From: a bacterium
GTDB lineage: Bacteria; Bacillota_I; Bacilli_A; RF39; UBA660
Reading direction: 5' to 3'
Length of the DNA stretch: 51,108 nt
Assembly (NCBI GenBank): GCA_963589235.1
Contig: CAVAJX010000038.1
Coordinates: 1 to 51,108 of the forward strand
Of this stretch, positions 3,219 through 41,668 are shown piece after piece. The translations under genes and the position numbers were made by a program. Position 1 is the first letter of the stretch. The number at the start of each line of letters is the position of its first letter. Under the pieces are notes generated by a model. The model was not told the origin of the DNA and searched no databases. It saw only the letters and a program-made list of their open reading frames with translations.

Positions 3219-4034
3219 ATGTTAAAACTGACTGAAAATATAGAAGTTGATATAATTAATTTAATTCTTCCTGTAATATATATATTAATAGGAATGGTAA
3301 TCTACAAAGTCTTAAAAAGAATTATTGATAGAAGTATAAACATAGAAAGAATAACTTTAAAATCACATAAACAAAGAGCAGAAACAATAAAAATGTTAAT
3401 ACTAAATATAATTAAATACATAACAGTAATATTAGTATTATTAGCAATTCTTTCTAACTTTGGAATAAACGTTAAGTCAATTTTAGCAGGATTAGGAATT
3501 ACAACTGCCATTATTGGTTTAGCCTTCCAAGACTTAGCAAAAGACTTAATAGCAGGTATTTCAATAATTACTGAAAATCAATATGAAGTAGGAGATACCA
3601 TAGAAGTAGATGGATTCATGGGAGAAGTTGTATTTTTAGGTCTAAAAACAACAAAGATTAGAGACTATAAAGGCGCAACAAAAATAATAGCAAATCACAA
3701 CATGGATAAAATAATTAATTATAGTCTACATGACTCATTAGCTGTAGTAGATATAGGAACAAGCTATGAAAATACAACAGAAGAAATAGAAAAAGTATTA
3801 ACTGATTTAGCAACTAATCTAAAAGGAAAAATAAAAGATGCCACTGGTGACATTGAAATTTTAGGAATAAATAGACTTGCAGACTCAGCTGTTGAATATC
3901 GAGTTACTGTACCAGTAAAACCTATGAAACAGTTTGCAACCGAAAGATTCTTACGCAAAGAAATTAAAGATGCCTTTGATAAATCAGGAATAAATATCCC
4001 ATATCCACAAATAGAGGTGCACAATGGAAAATAA
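3219..4034 (+). CDS. MscS-family mechanosensitive ion channel
   Basis: N-terminal TM helices followed by a beta-domain (GDTIEVDGFMGEVVFLGLKTTKIRDY) typical of small MscS homologs. Confidence 0.8.
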   Translation: MLKLTENIEVDIINLILPVIYILIGMVIYKVLKRIIDRSINIERITLKSHKQRAETIKMLILNIIKYITVILVLLAILSNFGINVKSILAGLGITTAIIGLAFQDLAKDLIAGISIITENQYEVGDTIEVDGFMGEVVFLGLKTTKIRDYKGATKIIANHNMDKIINYSLHDSLAVVDIGTSYENTTEEIEKVLTDLATNLKGKIKDATGDIEILGINRLADSAVEYRVTVPVKPMKQFATERFLRKEIKDAFDKSGINIPYPQIEVHNGK

Positions 4035-10959: not shown

Positions 10960-11400
10960 ATGGAAGTAATTTTTATCAAAGATTTAAAAAATCAAGGTAA
11001 GAAAGGACAAATTAAAAACGTAAAAGATGGATATGCCCAAAACTTTCTTATCAAAAACGGTTATGCCGTAGCAAAAACTAAAGAAAACTTATCAAAGCTT
11101 GAACATGAAAAAGAGAAAAAAGCTGATGAAGATTTAAAAAACAAAAAATTAGCTGAAGAACTAAAAGCAAAACTTGATAAAGAAGTATTAGAATTCAAAG
11201 TAAAAACTGGTGAAAACGATAGAGTATTTGGAAGTATCAGTCAAAAACAAATAAAAGATAACCTACAAGAAAAAGGTTACAAAATAGAAAAGAGTCAAAT
11301 AGATAATAGTAATCAAATATCATCACTTGGCTTTCATAATGTAAACATAAATATATACGGAAATATTAAAGCAACAGTAAAAGTACATCTAGTAAAGTGA
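10960..11400 (+). CDS. rplI: 50S ribosomal protein L9
   Basis: [31 protein letters not shown] sequence. The start is set at the ATG at 10960, after the GGAGGGTG RBS. Confidence 0.95.
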
Positions 11401-16168: not shown

Positions 16169-16196
16169 AAAAGGTACTTCAATTCGAAGTACTTTT
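16167..16196. terminator. Bidirectional terminator between ung and pta
   Basis: A-run, GTACTTC-aattc-GAAGTAC stem, then T-run. Confidence 0.8.
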
Positions 16197-17184
16197 ATTT
16201 TTGTGCTTGAACAGCCGTAATAGCAATAACTCCAAGTATATCGTCTACGCTACAACCACGAGATAAATCATTAACTGGAGCAGCCAAACCTTGACAAATA
16301 GGACCATACGCTTGAGCCTTAGCCAAACGTTGTACTAATTTATATCCAGAGTTACCTGCATCTAAGTCAGGAAAAATTAATACATCAGCCTTACCAGCAA
16401 CTAAACTTCCAGGAGCCTTACTTCTAGCAACCTCAGGTACAATTGCGGCATCAACTTGTAATTCACCATCCATATTATAATCAGGATATTTCTCATTTGC
16501 ATATTTTACAGCTCTAATAACCTTATCAACATCGGCATGTTTTGCACTACCTTTTGTTGAATGAGATATGAAAGCAACCCAAGGATCAGCTTTAGTAAGA
16601 AGTTTGAAACTATCAGCACTTTCTTTCGCGATACTAGCAAGTTCTACATCAGTAGGATTTTGTACTAATCCAGAATCAGCAAAAATAAATGTTCCATTCA
16701 AACCATAATCACAGTCAGGTACACACATTAAAAAGAAAGCAGATACCAAGTCAACTCCTTGCTTAGCTTTAATTATTTGCAAAGCCGGACGCAAAGTATC
16801 AGACGTAGGATGACATGCACCAGATACAACACCATCAGCTTTACCTAGTTTTACTAACATACAAGCAAAATACATATAGTCATTATGTAATAACTCAGCG
16901 GCCTCATCATAAGTTAATCCTTTATCTTTCCTTAAAAGATAAAGTTCATTAACCATATTTTCTGTATCAGGATAAGTACTTGGATTTATTACTTCTATCC
17001 TTTCGCTTCCCTCAATATTAAATTTTTTGATTTCCTCACTATCACCAATAACAACAATTCTAGCAAGTCCTTCATCAGTAGCACTAACAGCAGCCTTAAG
17101 TACTCTTTCATCCATAGACTCAGGTAATACTATAGTCTTAATATTATTTTTAGCTCTTTCTTTAATACTATCAATAAAATTCAT
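16195..17184 (-). CDS. pta: Phosphate acetyltransferase
   Basis: 329 aa with conserved SHSTKGS, DAGNSGYKL and PVNDLSRG motifs. Confidence 0.95.
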   Translation of the reverse strand: MNFIDSIKERAKNNIKTIVLPESMDERVLKAAVSATDEGLARIVVIGDSEEIKKFNIEGSERIEVINPSTYPDTENMVNELYLLRKDKGLTYDEAAELLHNDYMYFACMLVKLGKADGVVSGACHPTSDTLRPALQIIKAKQGVDLVSAFFLMCVPDCDYGLNGTFIFADSGLVQNPTDVELASIAKESADSFKLLTKADPWVAFISHSTKGSAKHADVDKVIRAVKYANEKYPDYNMDGELQVDAAIVPEVARSKAPGSLVAGKADVLIFPDLDAGNSGYKLVQRLAKAQAYGPICQGLAAPVNDLSRGCSVDDILGVIAITAVQAQK

Positions 17185-17195
17185 ATATCATCCTT

Positions 17196-17729
17196 CTATC
17201 TATCTTTTAATATTTCAAACATTTCTCTTTTTTCATCAGAGTAAAAACTTTTTTTCTTATATCTTCTAAAGAAACCAACAATATTAGAAGGAAAAGAAAC
17301 AACTAAACTATTAAAAACTATTACCGCGTCATTATAAAACTTAACAGCTCCAGAAAGCTCAATTTCATTTTTCTTTAACTCTTCCAAAATACTATTTAAA
17401 GAATCACTTTTAAGTAATTTTTCATTTTCATCTATAGTTTTTAATAAATCATTATAATTTTTTCTTAATAAATCATTAAATTCAAAATGATTAAGAGCGT
17501 CAGGATTTATATTTAAAACCTCAGGTAAAAACTCTTCTATTTTTAATTCTTTAATAATAATAGGACAAGTTCTTTCTAATAAATCTTTTTTAGTATGTAA
17601 CAAAGCATCTATATTATTTTCAGCTTCTTCTATTTTAATAATCGCAAACTGAAACTTATTATTAAGTATACTAATAAAAATCAGAATAAGAGCTAATCCC
17701 ACAACAACACCAAGAATTATTTCTAACAT
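17196..17729 (-). CDS. lemA: LemA-family membrane protein
   Basis: N-terminal TM helix plus the LemA pattern (..FYNDAV..FN......FPSN.V). The start is set at the ATG at 17727-17729, after AGAGGTGG. The longer track ORF reads through the repeat element. Confidence 0.85.
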   Translation of the reverse strand: MLEIILGVVVGLALILIFISILNNKFQFAIIKIEEAENNIDALLHTKKDLLERTCPIIIKELKIEEFLPEVLNINPDALNHFEFNDLLRKNYNDLLKTIDENEKLLKSDSLNSILEELKKNEIELSGAVKFYNDAVIVFNSLVVSFPSNIVGFFRRYKKKSFYSDEKREMFEILKDR

Positions 17730-17764
17730 AAAACCACCTCTAATTATTACAATTATATCAAAAT

Positions 17765-18150
17765 AATGTTTTATAAACAACTTCCTAAAAGAACAAAGGA
17801 CAAATTTTAATTTATAAATTTCAATTTGTCGTTTTTGTTTGGTCGTCACCGATCAAATTTCCTACCTCACAGATAGAGTAATCTCTATTCGCCATAATGG
17901 CTTAAATTCCGACAGTCGCTGCCGTACTAATTCTTTTATTTATAATTTTTTAATTGTTTTGACAAATTATTTATATTACTAGTATTTTTAGTATAACTCA
18001 AATAGGATGTAGTTTGAACTTATCAGCTTTATACATAAAATAACACCTCCATAATCTTATCTTATTATATTACGATGCAAACGTTTGTTTGTCAACGGGT
18101 GAGATTATAAAATTTAAAAAAGTAGAAAGAAAATTCCTTATAAATAAAAA
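17765..18150 (-). mobile_element. Copy A of a miniature IS200/IS605-type (tnpB-deleted) element
   Basis: About 95% identical by eye to 28485-28875 in inverted orientation. Contains a promoter (TTGACA 18090-18095 on -, 17-nt spacer, TAATAT), a micro-ORF at 17998-18036 (-) reading MYKADKFKLHPI*, and a subterminal hairpin at 17799-17830. Confidence 0.6.
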
Positions 18151-18171
18151 AAGTCAATAATATGACCTTTT

Positions 18172-18414
18172 TTACATACCTAAAAGTTGTGATAAACTTA
18201 ACAATAATCCTAGAAGTAAAAAGAAAAATGTAATACCTAAACCAACAAGAGCACCAGATTTAGCAAATTGTGCATGATACTCTTTATTCTTTTTATCTAG
18301 GAAAAAGTAATATAGTGCAATACCTGCTGGAAAGAAGAATATTCCACATATCAATAATAATATACGATCTTCAACATCAATTTTTCCAGCATAAACATCT
18401 TTTTCTTTTTCCAT
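18172..18414 (-). CDS. Small two-TM membrane protein, function unknown
   Basis: 80 aa with two hydrophobic helices; RBS GGAGGAG upstream of the ATG; terminator hairpin downstream. Confidence 0.5.
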   Translation of the reverse strand: MEKEKDVYAGKIDVEDRILLLICGIFFFPAGIALYYFFLDKKNKEYHAQFAKSGALVGLGITFFFLLLGLLLSLSQLLGM

Positions 18415-18448
18415 ATGATACTCCTCCTATGATAATTATAACACGAAT

Positions 18449-20407
18449 TTAGGAAGCCGTATAGTTATTATTTTTTTCATCAAAAGTTTGGTCAGTACTA
18501 CTAGGCTCCGTACCCTTTACAAAGTACATCATCTTCTTTTTTGGACTAGAATCAGTTGCTGGCTTACCAGAAATTGGATCAACTAATACCGCCGATATAT
18601 TATCTGGCATTTCATACCAAGCATCTTCCTTACCAAGTTCATATGCTTCAATTGACTTATACCATATATCTCTAGCGTACTTATAGTCAGACTTATCAAT
18701 ATTTCTATTGTCATCATAACCAGCCCAAACAGCCGTAACTACATCATTATTAAAACCAATATACCAAGTATCAGTATTAGTAGTACCAGACTTAATTCCA
18801 TATTTATGTGTTAACTTAGAAGCTAAATTTATTGCGGTAGGATAATTATAATCAATATAATCTTTATCATAAGTAGCTGTTAATAAATTATTAAGAATAA
18901 AAACCAAACTAGAATTTAAGACTAATTCCTTTTTATCATTAGCTTTATATAATACTTTACCAGATGCATCAACAACTTTTTCAATCAAATGACCTTTAAC
19001 TTTGTATCCCAGATTAGCAAAAGCAGAGTAGCCAGAGGCCATTTCAACAATACTAATTTCATTAGTACCTAAAGGTAAAGAAGGAACACTTTCAAGTTTA
19101 GAAGTAATACCAACTCTTCTAGCAACATTAATAAGGGCATCTTCTCCAAGAAAAAGATGAGTTTTAACAGCATAAATATTTTCTGAGTAAGCAATAGCAG
19201 TACCCATGGAAATAGGCTTATTACCATATACATTATTATAATTACTTGGTGAATATGGCTCTTGATTACTAAAAGTAAAAGTCGTTTTTTCACTAGTAAA
19301 AGCCGAACTAGATGTAAAACCATTCTCTAAAGCAGCATAATATAAATAAGGTTTCATAGTAGAGCCAACTTGTCTTTTTGAAGATATAACCCGATTATAA
19401 GAAGATTTATTATAATTTTTACCACCAAGCAACGCTATTATTGCGCCATTATTAGGATTCATCATTACTGCTGAAGCTTCAATTTCTGAAGTATCAGGAA
19501 TACTTTCTTTAACATTTTTTTCAAGTATACGTTGAGCATTTAAATCTAAATTAGTATATATTTTTAAACCTTTACTATCACTATAAGATAAAGGAATAGA
19601 GTCAATATTTTTTAACTCTTCCAAAACAGCGTCCTGATAATACATTACACTAGTCAATTCTTCAGAATCATCCGCACCAGAAAACTTAAGTTCTTCACTA
19701 TAAGCTTTATTTTTCTCTTCCTCACTAATAACATTATTTTTAACAAGTAACTCCAATATAGTTAATTGTCTTTCTTTCGCAAGATCAAAATTAATTATTG
19801 GCGAATAATTAGCTGGAGACTTAGGAATACCTGTTAAAATACTTGCCTCGGCCAAGTCTAAATCTTTTGCCGACTTATTAAAATAAAACTTACTAGCATT
19901 TTCAATACCATACATACCATGTCCATAATTAATAGTATTTAAATATCCTTCTAGTATTTCATCTTTAGAATAGTTAGCCTCTATTTTCATCGTATACCAC
20001 ATTTCATCCCATTTTCTTTTCCAAGTCTTATCAAAATCCAAGAAAAGATTTTTAGCATATTGTTGTGTAATAGTAGAAGCACCCTGCATAGTCTTTCCAG
20101 ATGTTATATTTATATAGCTAGCTTTCAATATTCTTAAAATATCAAATCCAAAATGTTTATAAAAATTCTTATCCTCAGTATAAATAGTAGACTTAATAAC
20201 ATTATCAGATATTTCATCTAAACTAACCCAGGCTTTTGACTCATTACCTTGAAAAAACACTGTATCTGTAGAGTCATACAATGTTATATTATTAGCACTA
20301 TATATCTCAGGCTTAGGAGAGGTTTTAATATAAACAAATATTCCGACACATAATAAAACTAGGAGTATCATCCCGTACTTAAAAATTTTAAAAAAAGTCT
20401 TTTTCAA
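18449..20407 (-). CDS. Class A penicillin-binding protein (glycosyltransferase + transpeptidase)
   Basis: GT51 motifs (EDKNFYKHFGFD, GASTITQQYAKN), transpeptidase SxxK (GSTMKP) and KSGTT; N-terminal TM helix. Confidence 0.92.
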   Translation of the reverse strand: MKKTFFKIFKYGMILLVLLCVGIFVYIKTSPKPEIYSANNITLYDSTDTVFFQGNESKAWVSLDEISDNVIKSTIYTEDKNFYKHFGFDILRILKASYINITSGKTMQGASTITQQYAKNLFLDFDKTWKRKWDEMWYTMKIEANYSKDEILEGYLNTINYGHGMYGIENASKFYFNKSAKDLDLAEASILTGIPKSPANYSPIINFDLAKERQLTILELLVKNNVISEEEKNKAYSEELKFSGADDSEELTSVMYYQDAVLEELKNIDSIPLSYSDSKGLKIYTNLDLNAQRILEKNVKESIPDTSEIEASAVMMNPNNGAIIALLGGKNYNKSSYNRVISSKRQVGSTMKPYLYYAALENGFTSSSAFTSEKTTFTFSNQEPYSPSNYNNVYGNKPISMGTAIAYSENIYAVKTHLFLGEDALINVARRVGITSKLESVPSLPLGTNEISIVEMASGYSAFANLGYKVKGHLIEKVVDASGKVLYKANDKKELVLNSSLVFILNNLLTATYDKDYIDYNYPTAINLASKLTHKYGIKSGTTNTDTWYIGFNNDVVTAVWAGYDDNRNIDKSDYKYARDIWYKSIEAYELGKEDAWYEMPDNISAVLVDPISGKPATDSSPKKKMMYFVKGTEPSSTDQTFDEKNNNYTAS

Positions 20408-28465: not shown

Positions 28466-28488
28466 TTATATAGTTATATTTCTTTTTT
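28456..28488 (+). terminator. murA intrinsic terminator
   Basis: AGAAATATAA/TTATATTTCT 10-bp stem overlapping the stop codon, followed by T5. Confidence 0.75.
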
Positions 28489-28875
28489 ATTTATAATGGA
28501 TTTTCTTTCTACTTTTTTAAATTTTATAATTTTGCCCATTGACAAACAAATGTTTGTATCGTAATATAATAAGACAAGATTATGGAGGTGTTATTTTATG
28601 TATAAAGCTGATAAGTTCAAACTACATCCTATTTGAGTTATACTAAAAATACTAGTAATATAAATAATTTGTCAAAACAATTAAAAAATTATAAATAAAA
28701 GAATTAGTACGGCAGCGACTGTCGGAATTTAAGCCATTATGGCGAATAGAGGTTACTCTATCTGTGAAGTAGGAAATTTGATCGGTGACGACCAAACGGC
28801 AAATTGAAATTTATAAATTGAAATTTGCCCTTTGTTCTTTTGGAGGAGTTATGAAGTTTATAAAAAAACACTATA
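28485..28875 (+). mobile_element. Copy B of a miniature IS200/IS605-type (tnpB-deleted) element
   Basis: Promoter TTGACA(28539-28544)-17-TAATAT, micro-ORF at 28598-28636, a GC-richer structured block at 28706-28797 and a subterminal hairpin at 28798-28829. Repeated at 17765-18150 (-) and 36889-37256 (+). Confidence 0.6.
28598..28636 (+). pseudogene. 12-codon relic of a TnpB (IS605 OrfB) N-terminus
   Basis: GGAGGTG RBS, then MYKADKFKLHPI*. The paralogous copy C reads (TTG)YKAYKFRLYPI*, matching the canonical KAYKFRLYP start of TnpB proteins. Confidence 0.55.
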
Positions 28876-29594: not shown

Positions 29595-29654
29595 TATACT
29601 AATAGCGCATTTAATTACTATGACAAACGTTGTCATGGCGGAAGGAGAGATCGT

Positions 29655-29873
29655 ATGAAAAAGGATATACATCCAACAATGGTAGATTGTAAAGTTACTT
29701 GCGCTTGTGGAGAAACATTTACAGTTAAATCAACAAAACCAGAAATAAGCGTTGAAGTTTGTTCAAAATGTCATCCATTCTATACAGGAAAACAAAGTAG
29801 AGCATCTCGTGCTGGTAGAGTAGATAAATTTAATAGAAAATATGGTTTAAATCAAAACGAAACTGCTGAATAA
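29655..29873 (+). CDS. rpmE: 50S ribosomal protein L31 (zinc-ribbon type)
   Basis: MKKDIHP start with C..C....C..CHPFYTG. Confidence 0.95.
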
Positions 29874-36888: not shown

Positions 36889-37256
36889 TATTTATAAGAA
36901 ATTTTTTAAGAATATTATAACTGTGCACTTGAATAATAAGTATATGTACACCATTATAGTAAGAGAAGATTATGTTGGCATATCATTGTATAAAGCTTAT
37001 AAGTTTAGACTATATCCTATTTGATTTATAAAAAAATGTAGGTGTATAAATGGAAGTGTAAAAACATTGTCAAAAGGTCAAAAGAATTATAAATAAAATA
37101 ATTAGTATACCAGCGACTGTAGCAAATTTAACTCATTATAGTGAATAGAGGTTACTCTATCTGGAAAGTGGAAAATTTGATTGACGTTGATTAAAAAAAT
37201 ATAAATAGAAATTTATAAATGAAATTTGTCTTTTGTACTTTAGATGTGTTATAATT
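36889..37256 (+). mobile_element. Copy C (diverged, decayed) of the miniature IS200/IS605-type element
   Basis: Alignable over its whole length with copies A and B, at roughly 65-70% identity by eye. Relic ORF at 36986-37024 reads (TTG)YKAYKFRLYPI*. The ATAGAG-gtta-CTCTAT hairpin is conserved, but the 5' arm of the terminal hairpin is lost. Confidence 0.55.
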
Positions 37257-37817: not shown

Positions 37818-37828
37818 TTTAATTAAAA

Positions 37829-37865
37829 AATAGTATTAGATTGACCTCTAATATTATTTTTTTTT
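37829..37865 (+). terminator. hpf intrinsic terminator
   Basis: 12-bp stem with one mismatch (AATAGTATTAGA/TCTAATATTATT), loop TTGACC, followed by T7. Confidence 0.8.
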
Positions 37866-37875
37866 ATATATAAGG

Positions 37876-39610
37876 GTGTGCCAGTTCGGTGCTTAATATA
37901 TAGTTAGGTGAAACTCCAAACCTGGTAATCTCTAGCAAAGAGCCAGTATCCAGTCTTGGAGCCAAAATCGTGAGATTAGGTTTAAGCGTAGACAAGAAAG
38001 TGTTTGAGCCGAAATGCAAAAGCGTGAAGTGATGGAGCCTCGTTATTAAAACATTAAATATGGAAGCTTATGTACTCCTTTTTACAGCAAGCAACATTTG
38101 TAATATCGTTAAAGCGAGATATTATGAATTCCATCAGGGTCTAAGAACTTGGCAAGTTCACAAGGTATATTTAAGCATACCTGGGAGAACTTATGGGTTC
38201 CTTAATTCTAAAAGGTTTAAAATCACCAATAGTAAAAGGTATATCAAAGCAAGGTTTTATAAACTAAGCGAGGTAAATGACTTATAAGTAGTCGGACTAG
38301 TTCATAGTAGCGATGAAGTATATGAAAGTATATGGAGTGAAGGGACTAGCATATAAATCGTTTCTCTGATAGAAACATTAATTACACATGGAGGTAATAG
38401 AAAGTGGAAAATGAAAGAGGAGATATAAGAAGTCAATCTATAAAGTATAAGAAACTTCAAATGTTGATGCATCATATCAACAATGAAACATTAATAAAAG
38501 AACATCAAAAGCAAATCAACAATAAAGCGAGTGGAATAGACAAAATGACTAAAGAGAAATACGAAACAAATTTAAACAACAACATAGATGAATTAATACA
38601 AAGAATGAAGTTATTTAAATACAGACCACAAGCGGTAAGAAGAACGTACATACCCAAGGCAAATGAGAAATTAAGACCATTAGGAATACCTGCATATGAA
38701 GATAAACTAGTACAAGGCGTCATGGCAAATATCCTAAACGAGATATACAAACCAAGATTTTTAAATTGTTCATATGGATTTAGACCAAATAGAAATTGTC
38801 ATCAAGCAATAGCAAGCATTAAGAAATCGATAACGACAAAACCAGTCAATTATATATTAGATGCAGATATAAAAGGCTTCTTTGATAATGTAGACCATAA
38901 ATGGATGATAAGATTTCTAGAAAATGATATAGAGGATAAGAACTTTATAAGATACATAGTAAGATTTTTAAAATCAGGTATTATGGAAAAAGGAATTATT
39001 AAAGAAAGCTTAAAAGGAACACCACAAGGTGGATTAATATCACCTATACTAGCTAATGTATATTTACATTATGTACTTGATTTATGGGTAGAAAAATGGG
39101 TAAAACCAAGAGCAAAAGGATATGTAGAAATAGTAAGATATGCCGATGATTTTTTAGTGATGTTTCAATATGAAAATGAAGCCAAATCATTTTATGAGGT
39201 TTTAAAGAAAAGGCAAATACATAGTAAAACATAAAACAAGTAAGAAGAAAATGAAAGCAAAAAGAAAAGAATTTAAAATGTGGATGCGGCAAAATATGCA
39301 TAAACCAATATATGAAACAATGGAAACTATTAAGTGAAAATTAATAGGACACTATAATTATTATGGAATAATAAATCCATATGTGATTATTATATGTATG
39401 TTAAATGGAATACATATAGAATATTAAATAGAAGACATCAAAAGAAAAGTATGTCTTATGAAATATTTAATAGAATATGGATTGGATTTTTAATGCCAAT
39501 ACCACATATTAGAGTAAACATAGGTTAAATCAAAGATTTATATGAAGAGTCGTAAGCCTTAATAGGGCACGTACGGTTCTGTGAGGGACAGACAGACGAG
39601 CCTTTCACTT
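37876..39610 (+). mobile_element. Group II intron (class C-like), degenerate
   Basis: 5' GUGUG at 37876. Canonical domain V at 39547-39579 (GAGUCGUAAGCC..GGGCACGUACGGUUC), followed by a domain VI-like helix. Contains an internal RT ORF. Sits 10 nt after the T-run of a terminator. The 3' boundary is approximate. Confidence 0.8.
38404..39528 (+). pseudogene. Intron-encoded reverse transcriptase/maturase, frameshifted and internally deleted
   Basis: RT blocks are present, including RPLGIPAYEDKLVQ and YADDF. The frame breaks after 39234. Maturase X remnants (KLIGHYNYYGI, ...PHIRVNIG*) appear in other frames. No endonuclease domain. Confidence 0.8.
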
Positions 39611-39868
39611 AAATTAAAAAAGAGAGGTAAGTTGAGTTTGTCTACTCGACAAATTGCGTTTAAGCTATTATTGAACAAAAAAAGAACTCGATAGAATTAA
39701 TACATATCAAAAAGATTAAAGCTAAAAACTCTAATTATTTATAAGGAATTTGCTTTTTACTATTGTAACTATTCAGACTATTTGCAAACAACATTATAAT
39801 TTTTTTAATTAAATAACAAAATTAGTGTAATCTATGATACAATAAAAAAAAAGTAGAGGAGTGGAAGA

Positions 39869-41668
39869 ATGAAAGAAGAAAAAAAGTCTCGGGATAGTCT
39901 AAAAATAATAATTCTAATAGCTGTAACCATATTTGCAACATGCTTTATATATGAATATAACAAAATTTTGATATCTAAAAACAATAAGAATAATCAAGAT
40001 GTAAAAGAATCAAAAACAATTGCTGTAGAAAAAGTGGATATAAATGCAATAGGTGACAATACAATAGAAGAAGAAACAAACAATGACAATAAAATAATAA
40101 ATAAAAATACTATAACGCAATCACAATCTACAACTAGTTGTAAAAAAAATTCAGCTTGTTTAATAGCGGGTAATTTTTTAAGTGATGGAGTTGTAACAAC
40201 AGCGGAAGCAAATGCTATGAAAATTAACACAGCAAATTTACAATATCTTGTTAATACATATAATTCATCAGAAAGGACCATTATTGAACTTCCTTCAGGA
40301 ACATATTACTTTTCAAAAGGCGGAGAGGCAAAAAATGAAGATTATGTTATTAAACTTACAAATAATACAACAATAAAAGGATCAGGAACTTCGGAAAATG
40401 AAGCAACAATCTTAAAACCATATGCACCAGATAACACAATTGAAAAAGGATTAGATATGTTTTATTATAATCATTTAACAGATACAAAAGGTGCAGAAGC
40501 AAAATACCTTGAAAATGTAAGTTTTTCAAATTTTGTTATAGATGGTAATGATGTTAGAGCAAAAAAATACACAAGTGCCGGAAAAGGATTTATGATAAAT
40601 TTATGCAAAAATTGTACATGGGATAACATGGTTGTAAAAAATACAGATGGAACTGGATTTGGAATGGATAACCTTATTGATAGTAAGATAACAAATAGTA
40701 CAGCTATAAATTGTGGAAAATTAGCAACAACAACTTCATATGGAGCATCTGGATTTGGTATAGGTACAGGTTACTCCAATGAAGAATCCGTACTTATTGA
40801 AAACTGTACAGCAATTGGAAATAAAAAATATGGATTCTTCTTTGAACATCAAGGCTATTTTGAAAATGGTGAAAGTGATGATAACAGAACATACAAAGCG
40901 ACAAAAGCGGTAGGATTTACTGTAAAAAATTCAACTGCAACAGGAAATCTATATAACTTTGGTGCTAATAGAGGAAATGATGTCAGCTACATAAACTGTT
41001 CAAGTACAAAAGATAATACAACGATAGATGGTACTCCTGTAGGATATACGCAATCTGATATATATTTCACTGATCAATCTCGTAGAACAAAAATAGAAAA
41101 CTTTCAAACAGATAATATGTTTACTGATGTTAGTAAATCATCACCATATTATGATGCTATTAAATGGGCATATCTTAATAGTATGATATATGGAGTAGGC
41201 AACTATACTTTCGGTTTGAATGTAAATGCAACTAGAGCAGATGTTGTAACAATTCTATGGAGATATTCAGGTAGAAAAGGAGATGTTGTTTTTGGATTAC
41301 ATGAAGATGCAAAAGTAAAAACTGATTTCAAAGATGTATCAAGCAATGCCCTTTATGCAGGTGCTGTAAGCTGGGCTGCAGAAAATAAAATAACAAATGG
41401 TACTTCATCAACAACATTCTCACCAAATAAAAATGTTACAAGAGAACAATTTGTAACAATGTTATGGCGTTACGCTGGAAGTCCAAATGTAAAAGGAAGT
41501 TTACCATTTAAAGATGTAAAAAAATCATCACCATATTATAAGGCAATAAAATGGGCATATAAAAAGAATATAACAAATGGAACCAGTAACACTACCTTTT
41601 CTCCAAAAGCAAATTGTACAAGGGAACAAGTTATTACTATGATATACAGATATAATAATACACTATAG
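39869..41668 (+). CDS. Cell-surface protein: signal anchor, right-handed beta-helix region and three C-terminal SLH domains
   Basis: Three SLH repeats (FTDVSKSSPYYDAIKWAY.., FKDVSSNALYAGAVSWAA.., FKDVKKSSPYYKAIKWAY..). The central N/G/T-rich repeats resemble a pectin-lyase fold. Confidence 0.85.
   Translation: MKEEKKSRDSLKIIILIAVTIFATCFIYEYNKILISKNNKNNQDVKESKTIAVEKVDINAIGDNTIEEETNNDNKIINKNTITQSQSTTSCKKNSACLIAGNFLSDGVVTTAEANAMKINTANLQYLVNTYNSSERTIIELPSGTYYFSKGGEAKNEDYVIKLTNNTTIKGSGTSENEATILKPYAPDNTIEKGLDMFYYNHLTDTKGAEAKYLENVSFSNFVIDGNDVRAKKYTSAGKGFMINLCKNCTWDNMVVKNTDGTGFGMDNLIDSKITNSTAINCGKLATTTSYGASGFGIGTGYSNEESVLIENCTAIGNKKYGFFFEHQGYFENGESDDNRTYKATKAVGFTVKNSTATGNLYNFGANRGNDVSYINCSSTKDNTTIDGTPVGYTQSDIYFTDQSRRTKIENFQTDNMFTDVSKSSPYYDAIKWAYLNSMIYGVGNYTFGLNVNATRADVVTILWRYSGRKGDVVFGLHEDAKVKTDFKDVSSNALYAGAVSWAAENKITNGTSSTTFSPNKNVTREQFVTMLWRYAGSPNVKGSLPFKDVKKSSPYYKAIKWAYKKNITNGTSNTTFSPKANCTREQVITMIYRYNNTL

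Follow-up and report, generated by a model that had tools for sequence, protein, structure and literature searches.

In the IS200/IS605 family, the Y1 transposase TnpA excises and inserts the top strand of the element, TnpB with an RNA from the right end cuts the vacated site, and recombination then restores the element (PMC10055086). Gene-less PATE-like copies "often encode omega-RNAs", with TnpB encoded elsewhere acting in trans (PMC10055086).

We analyzed a 51,108-nt stretch of DNA (hereafter the window) from an uncultured gut bacterium of the Bacilli. The host genome is 1.36 Mb in 127 contigs, with 28% G+C, and the assembly is 96.75%-complete. A repeat upstream of lemA in the window, copy A, is very probably a PATE-like mini-element, which derives by internal deletion from a tnpB-only insertion sequence of the IS200/IS605 family and is non-autonomous. 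The element type is already known, and the basic picture matches published IS200/IS605 biology.

Mini-elements and their tnpB-encoding parent

Three copies were located in the window. Copy A occupies 17791-18144 on the (-) strand (354 nt; left end at 18144, right end at 17791), and its ends were fixed from empty sites in the related genomes G005, G007, and G014. Copy B (28490-28837, (+), 348 nt) lies between the murA terminator and the ribosome-binding site of a GDSL/SGNH hydrolase gene. Copy C (36891-37238, (+), about 348 nt) lies between csp and hpf; it is old and decayed, with ~74% identity to A and B. Contigs C123, C47, C92 (copy F), and C114 carry further copies, C17 a left half, and C96 a right half. 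One deletion junction is common to copies A, B, C, D, E, F, and H, so that the deletion derivative itself has spread, and the host genome contains seven mini-elements and one full-length element.

In a blastn alignment of 389 nt, 17769-18151 (-) and 28483-28865 (+) were 92.8% identical. Between the true ends of the element, 14 substitutions, of which 13 are transitions, and one 6-nt indel separate A from B, giving 96.0% identity, close to the ~95% estimated by eye in a sequence-only reading that preceded this work. That reading also described an identical core of ~215 nt, which is too long, as the longest identical run is 176 nt, and it started the copy at 17765, which is 26 nt past the right end of copy A. 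The coordinates and sequence that it gave for a micro-ORF, MYKADKFKLHPI plus a stop codon at 17998-18036 (-), agree with ours.

Copy A retains a left end with a promoter, a 12-codon relic of TnpB, ~8 codons from the end of tnpB, the complete structured module that follows the stop codon, and a right-end hairpin. No functional protein gene lies within it, and the 12-codon relic ORF alone remains. Judged by homology, the parent of the repeat, which had not been named previously, belongs to the TnpB-only IS200/IS605 elements. The same left end continues on C17 into the N-terminus of TnpB, which can be read for 264 residues to the contig end and matches the Pfam domains HTH_OrfB_IS605 (1e-17) and OrfB_IS605 (6e-21). 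The end of C96 carries the TnpB C-terminus, ...INASINIMFEGLRIHCQNS with its stop codon, followed by the right end. The one tnpB of the host genome is split by this contig break (C17/C96), and its middle third is unseen. No TnpB zinc-ribbon domain was found in the host assembly, because the contig break falls inside the single full-length copy, and this does not indicate absence of the gene.

Intact elements in close relatives, which are metagenome-assembled genomes of uncultured gut Bacilli, have a left end of about 115 nt, a gene for a 376-aa TnpB, and about 165 nt after the stop codon. This TnpB is homologous over its full length (residues 3-369) to ISDra2 TnpB (8bf8/8exa/8h1j; E 6.6e-66). 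The two ends of the full-length relatives L002, L016, and L001 match the two halves of copy A, and the mini-element thus has ends homologous to those of a TnpB-encoding element, as defines an IS200/IS605 derivative. Positions 21-204 of copy B correspond to 2386-2564 of L002, and positions 204-353 to 3610-3757. From this split match, about 1045 bp are missing, comprising tnpB codons ~22-369. The deletion joined the left end, with its promoter, 5'UTR, and initial codons, to the final few codons of the gene.

Because the C17 gene starts from the same left end, the 12-codon micro-ORF is a relic of the TnpB N-terminus. It is preceded by GGAGGTG and corresponds to the start of the full-length protein; its counterpart in copy C reads (L) followed by 11 residues. 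The adjoining 65 nt toward the right end (17933-17997, (-)) consist of the decayed tnpB codons ~13-21, the deletion junction near 17971, the last ~8 tnpB codons, and an A-rich linker.

The gene next to copy A, lemA (17196-17729, (-)), encodes 177 aa from the ATG at 17729 (Pfam LemA, 1.8e-8) and is followed by pta (16195-17184, (-); PTA_PTB, 7.7e-120). A promoter-like site of lemA at 17752-17780 (-), TTGTTT-17 nt-TG-n-TATAAT, is found in both the empty and occupied alleles. The hydrolase gene starts at 28851, 13 nt past the end of copy B. Long N-terminal ORF extensions of lemA and the hydrolase gene had been suspected to be artefacts of translating the repeat, and they are: VTTKQKRQIEIYKLKFVLCSF and VTTKRQIEIYKLKFALCSF translate the right end, the extended ORFs are GTG-initiated, and empty-site relatives without that DNA keep the same ribosome-binding site and ATG. 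The annotation is corrected here in two respects, in that these extensions are spurious and the ORF of 12 codons is a relic.

Empty sites and target preference

Genomes of the same genus with 95-98% identical flanks provided precise empty sites for both A and B. The empty allele of site A reads ...GACTTTTTTTA followed directly by TTTTAG(A/T)AAGTTG... in G005, G007, and G014, or in short form ...TTTTTTTA followed by TTTTAG.... The empty allele of site B in G007 and G005 reads ...TTATATTTCTTTTA followed by TTTTGGAGG..., with CTTTTA meeting TTTTGG at the junction. Site B is also empty in G013, G002, G011, G017, and G019, with slightly different T/A spacers. G014 is occupied at site B and empty at site A. 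Comparison of the empty and occupied alleles at A and B revealed no target-site duplication. The left boundary can be shifted by up to three T, and the right end was set at ...TTTGTTC because the flank of L002 begins with A. The sequence-only reading had proposed comparing orthologous lemA upstream regions in related strains; empty sites without duplication indicate insertion, not local duplication. In G013, another member of the family lies at the same nucleotide upstream of lemA, with a different left end, no tnpB relic, and an RNA module with about 85% identity, so that this site has been used at least twice.

The left flank of copy A (18145-18171, (-); AAAAAGGTCATATTATTGACTTTTTTTA) consists of a terminator-like hairpin of an 80-aa gene (18172-18414), a T7 tract, and A, and contains the candidate target/TAM ...TTTTA. 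The placement of copy A between this hairpin with its T-tract and lemA, pointing to lemA, agrees with the earlier description. All left flanks in the family end in a T-run followed by A or G. By a crude hairpin fold test, a hairpin with an immediate T-run was present in 18 of 33 independent left flanks (55%), against 13% of all T5(A/G) sites in the host genome and 24% of the intergenic ones (p 1.6e-4 versus intergenic). These counts and the empty-site junctions bear out the target-site preference after a terminator T-tract that had been suggested from copies A and B.

Because the sense strand of the upstream gene carries the target motif, the element adopts the orientation of that gene. It therefore points toward the next gene where the two genes are co-directional, as is so for five of the seven mini-elements and for the full-length element; copies E and H instead meet a convergent gene, whose 3' end lies directly at their right ends. 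Part of the pattern may reflect the survival of insertions that do no harm. Terminator-tail insertion, the repeated use of one site by different family members, and a LexA-like box in the element's promoter (see below) are testable observations. The matched empty and occupied alleles document an active family of guide-RNA-bearing mini-transposons in small-genome uncultured gut Bacilli.

An element with an intact 155-aa IS200 TnpA (L082, G015:C2) was also observed directly after a terminator T-tract and A (GGTTTTTTTA followed by TTATGTTCC). Terminator-tail targeting may be common to unrelated IS200/IS605 lineages of the genus.

The right-end RNA module and its hairpin

A structured module of five helices, GTACGG...TTTGTTC, occupies 17791-17932 (-) of copy A and is read as an omega-RNA scaffold plus the right end (covariance model R1, 125.1 bits, E 4e-22). 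In at least 30 full-length elements, the tnpB stop codon is followed by an A-rich linker and the conserved GTACGG-to-TTTGTTC block, which starts 25-60 nt after the stop. The module is ~120-140 nt long, lies wholly after the tnpB stop, and is present in 16 of 21 genomes of the genus. The segment from GTACGG to the end was kept exactly in three deletion or fusion products, namely the window type, the G013 lemA-site type, and a tnpA pseudogene fusion in G006; its retention in products of three different types indicates a functional unit. In most genomes of the genus, TnpB zinc-ribbon matches are fewer than RNA modules (9 modules to 0 matches, 10 to 5, and 6 to 2, for example), in counts that are biased by assembly breaks at repeats.

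R1 was built from 18 copies and matched 43 instances in the fetched loci and the window. Scores were 125 bits for A, 130 for B, 77 for C, and 141-148 for close full-length relatives. The alignment of the 43 members was fitted to the model's own structure, and in it 95.1% of cells were standard pairs and 21 of 28 pairs had changes on both sides. The covariation score was 0.369, against 0.147 for shuffles (none of 500 reached the observed value) and at most 0.08 for slid partners. A G-U pair in helix 1 is conserved; with several helices, this indicates that the fold is strand-specific and more than a transposase hairpin. These results support selection on the structure at the family level, as judged from the alignment. 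The module extends from the 3' end of tnpB through the right end and has a covarying fold, as expected of an omega-RNA, and we read it as the omega-RNA scaffold that follows tnpB in full-length elements.

Searches of the whole window at the gathering threshold and of copy B at a permissive threshold found no Rfam family for the module. The covariance model and fold are now given for an omega-RNA scaffold absent from Rfam. The Rfam matches judged real in the window were a group II intron and an L31 leader only. The latter, an L31-Firmicutes leader match at 29618-29647 (34.2 bits, just above the gathering score), lies upstream of a small ORF at 29655-29873.

The subterminal right-end hairpin of copy A (17799-17830, (-)) has an 8-bp stem, GACAAATT/AATTTGTC, a 2x2 internal loop, and an inner AATT-TATA-AATT. 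The location of this hairpin, its stem sequences, and those of copy B, GGCAAATT/AATTTGCC, were given correctly in the sequence-only reading, as was a second hairpin, ATAGAG/CTCTAT, in which A and B differ only in the loop. The long form of the right-end hairpin, found in copies A, B, C, E, F, and G, arose when the short GACAAATTGAAATTTGTC of full-length copies underwent a tandem duplication of 14 nt, and at least three different long forms occur in the family. Terminal inverted repeats are absent; the right-end hairpin is clear and covarying. We found no convincing left-end hairpin matching it, and a palindrome at the left end does not co-vary with it across subfamilies. In the terminal hairpin, pairing across the 43 members reaches 99.2% in one helix and 96.6% in the other, double changes are numerous, and the stem is wholly replaced between subfamilies (GACAAATT..., GAATAAAAATT..., GCGAAATAAAAT..., and TAAAAACAAAC...).

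The double substitution between A and B had been taken as covariation that argues for selection on structure. Among 22 close copies, G-C at this pair is confined to copy B of the window, which marks it as the derived state; on this comparison, the change from A-T to G-C in copy B is a derived, pairing-preserving change in a stem paired throughout the family. With 14 substitutions, 348 sites, and about 32 pairs, we estimated the chance expectation of a doubly changed pair as ~0.05, so that a single compensatory pair is only marginally beyond chance. Taken alone, the A/B pair is weak evidence (p about 0.05), and the argument for structural selection stands on the covarying 43-member fold. Non-compensatory stem changes in other copies, which had been named as evidence against selection, do occur in the old copy C, where helix 1 and the terminal hairpin contain uncompensated mismatches.

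A possible origin of the double change in copy B, though a somewhat doubtful one, is as a mutational by-product without selection for pairing, either by template-switch repair of the quasi-palindrome or by gene conversion between copies. Apart from the marginal statistics and the restriction of G-C to copy B, such an origin would fit a hairpin that is the most changeable part of the element, with its 14-nt duplication, at least three long forms, and a 6-nt indel just upstream. It would also fit the orthologue of copy B in G014, which has the short A-T form with a GAC/GTC hairpin despite about 95% overall identity. However, no one-sided intermediate was found among the intact close copies, and a stem that is replaced wholesale in the 43 diverged members yet is 96-99% paired requires selection at the family level.

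The left-end promoter, mobilization, and known systems

The sigma-70-type promoter of the former tnpB lies at 18067-18095 (-) (TTGACA, 17 nt, TAATAT; 10/12 in a promoter scan) and is conserved in full-length relatives. Between its -35 and -10 regions, at 18077-18092 (-), is the palindrome ACAAAC-N4-GTTTGC, a candidate LexA-type operator; LexA (SOS) operators are palindromes of the CGAAC-N4-GTTCG type that recur in the promoters of lexA, recA, and other damage genes of one organism. Its family form is ACAAAC-N4-GTTTG(T/C), with conserved arms and a spacer that varies in closer subfamilies. The 13-mer CAAACAAATGTTT, found in copy B and full-length copies, is the reverse complement of a box overlapping the -35 region of lexA; copy A differs from it at one spacer base (CAAACAAACGTTT). 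This box matched in six of six genus genomes inspected (G003, G005, G007, G011, G013, and G014), and in the lexA promoters it stands beside a second box, CGTAC-N4-GTTCG. The recA gene of the host genome has AAAACAATTGTTCG, and a dinD paralogue has AGAACAAATGTTTG. The AAAC-N4-GTTT core is frequent by chance at 28% G+C. No lexA was found in the host assembly by tblastn with the B. subtilis protein or by Pfam; it is present in all 20 other genomes of the genus, and its absence reflects either loss or an assembly gap. We treat the resemblance of the palindrome to a LexA-type box as a lead, not a finding.

It is conceivable, though rather improbable on these sequence matches, that the clade carries the host's LexA-type SOS operator in its left-end promoter and homes to terminator T-tails. 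If so, DNA damage would trigger production of TnpB and guide RNA at the very time when breaks and single-stranded DNA are at hand, and each gene-less copy would also serve as a movable damage-inducible promoter for the next gene (lemA-pta, the hydrolase gene, hpf, dnaE, or dinD).

Several fragments of the left end were observed elsewhere. Element remnants lie at C74:~160-330 and C76:~10960-11040, upstream of dnaE and a dinD-like gene; both keep the promoter, palindrome, and 5'UTR, and that on C74 also keeps a decayed right end. We considered these "solo" promoter fragments as independent SOS promoters and rejected that reading, as they are decayed remnants of the same element and give the SOS idea no independent support. 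In the window, the region 37818-39800 begins with the T-tract and A of the hpf terminator; next come TATATAAGG, the motif with which left ends of this insertion sequence family start, and, directly after it, GTGTG, the 5' end of a group II intron (RF02005 at 37911-38149). This intron has a truncated reverse transcriptase ORF at 38404-39234 and a D5-like GCACGTACGGTTC near 39570. The long variant of the left end that occurs in copy F (C92) and in the G013 lemA-site element is matched past the intron, at 39650-39736. From its sequence, this appears to be a fourth, degenerate left end split by the group II intron. A solo left-end/promoter fragment (TTTATAAGGAATTTGCTTTTTACT...TTTGCAAACAAC..ATTATAAT) follows at 39737-39800, directly upstream of the gene at 39869 for a 599-aa secreted protein.

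We weighed three other readings of the whole element. The layout of copy A, with a promoter, ribosome-binding site, 12-codon ORF, structured RNA, and hairpin with a T-rich run before a gene, superficially fits a host cis-regulatory leader (a promoter, leader peptide, and RNA attenuator or riboswitch) duplicated upstream of several genes and not mobile. We dropped a riboswitch or leader-peptide attenuator on recognizing the TnpB N-terminus and the empty sites, and we consider a non-mobile leader highly improbable: each half is one end of a TnpB insertion sequence, the supposed leader peptide is the start of TnpB, the sites are precisely empty in close relatives, two copies are directed at the 3' ends of convergent genes, and no Rfam leader or riboswitch family matched. 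A simple local segmental (inverted) duplication within the 51-kb window has even less to recommend it and can practically be set aside. A and B are 10.3 kb apart and inverted, as it would predict, yet their similarity breaks off precisely where the element ends, an orthologous empty allele exists for each of the two sites, six other contigs carry further copies, and G014 has B and not A.

More plausible, but still unlikely, is co-option of the copies by the host, for which they would serve as mobile regulatory cassettes with a damage-inducible, LexA-controlled outward promoter and a hairpin/U-tract attenuator before lemA-pta, the hydrolase gene, and hpf. A strong promoter is directed at the next gene, its palindrome matches the lexA-promoter box of the genus and resembles the recA and dinD-paralogue boxes, and the 13 nt between copy B and the hydrolase start codon leave no space for another promoter. 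On the other hand, strains with 95-98% identical flanks lack the element at sites A and B, which shows that it is dispensable for the host; lemA has its own promoter, copy C is decaying, no lexA is present in the host assembly, and the palindrome core is common by chance at this G+C content. The terminal hairpin also does not qualify as a terminator by its sequence: a terminator scan found no intrinsic terminator in 17650-18450, and the stem has two G-C pairs with the tail CUUUGUUC.

As a non-autonomous tnpB derivative, copy A would move by single-strand "peel and paste" with a Y1 TnpA supplied in trans. The old tnpB promoter would transcribe the relic ORF and the scaffold into the flank, and TnpB of the full-length copy would load this mini-element RNA in trans. 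Loaded TnpB would then cut the vacated site, a T-rich TAM followed by the flank, and recombination would restore the element. From the TnpB/omega-RNA architecture (PMC10055086), the predicted guide portion is the flank 3' of the right end, 17771-17790 (-), TTTTAGGAAGTTGTTTATAA. In the empty site, the guide-flank sequence stands directly after ...TTTTTTTA. This architecture is consistent with omega-RNA use of the flank as a predicted guide beside the TAM.

No Y1 tnpA was found in the host assembly (96.75%-complete), and Y1_Tnp matches occurred in three of 15 genus relatives searched, in one of which it is a pseudogene fused to the same RNA/right-end module. Intact IS200 elements of the genus have different end hairpins, CCACCC...GGGTGG, and for this reason they were not matched as the mobilizer; no cognate TnpA was found. 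An active TnpB in the host cell is unproven, with the only tnpB interrupted by an assembly gap. At L080 (G006:C75, 1348-1900), we observed an IS200-type tnpA (Y1) with one in-frame TAG and its 3' end fused directly to the same module; the hairpin at the left end of L080 is a different one (CCACCCGC...GCGGGTG). By its composition, L080 looks like a chimera of two IS200/IS605 lineages.

In IS608 of Helicobacter pylori, the basis of the Y1 TnpA single-strand model, as in copy A, a subterminal hairpin lies within a few nucleotides of the right end, insertion takes place 3' of a fixed short motif, and neither terminal inverted repeats nor target duplication occur. IS608 has near-identical hairpins at both ends and its own TnpA, whereas copy A has no matching left-end hairpin and no cognate TnpA was found.

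The parent TnpB is a full-length homologue of that of ISDra2 from Deinococcus radiodurans (E 6.6e-66). In both ISDra2 and the family of copy A, the RNA runs from the 3' end of tnpB through the right end, and insertion occurs after a short T-rich motif without duplication. ISDra2 has its own tnpA and the target/TAM TTGAT, whereas the family of copy A is tnpB-only, with a T-run and A as target, and copy A itself has no tnpB. The ISDra2 RNA and the module are unrelated in sequence at the level detectable with Rfam.

Copy A also resembles the PATE-like omega-RNA elements of the ISGst families of Geobacillus stearothermophilus (Meers et al., PMC10055086), which likewise have no protein gene. Both have ends in common with TnpB-encoding elements of the same genome, keep the scaffold at the right end, and presumably need TnpA and TnpB in trans. 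Copy A differs in its host, an uncultured gut member of the Bacilli with a 1.36 Mb genome of 28% G+C, and in retaining the tnpB promoter and the 12-codon relic, which gives its RNA module an upstream promoter of its own. It differs further in that its module lies entirely after the tnpB stop and that its insertion sites are terminator T-tails.
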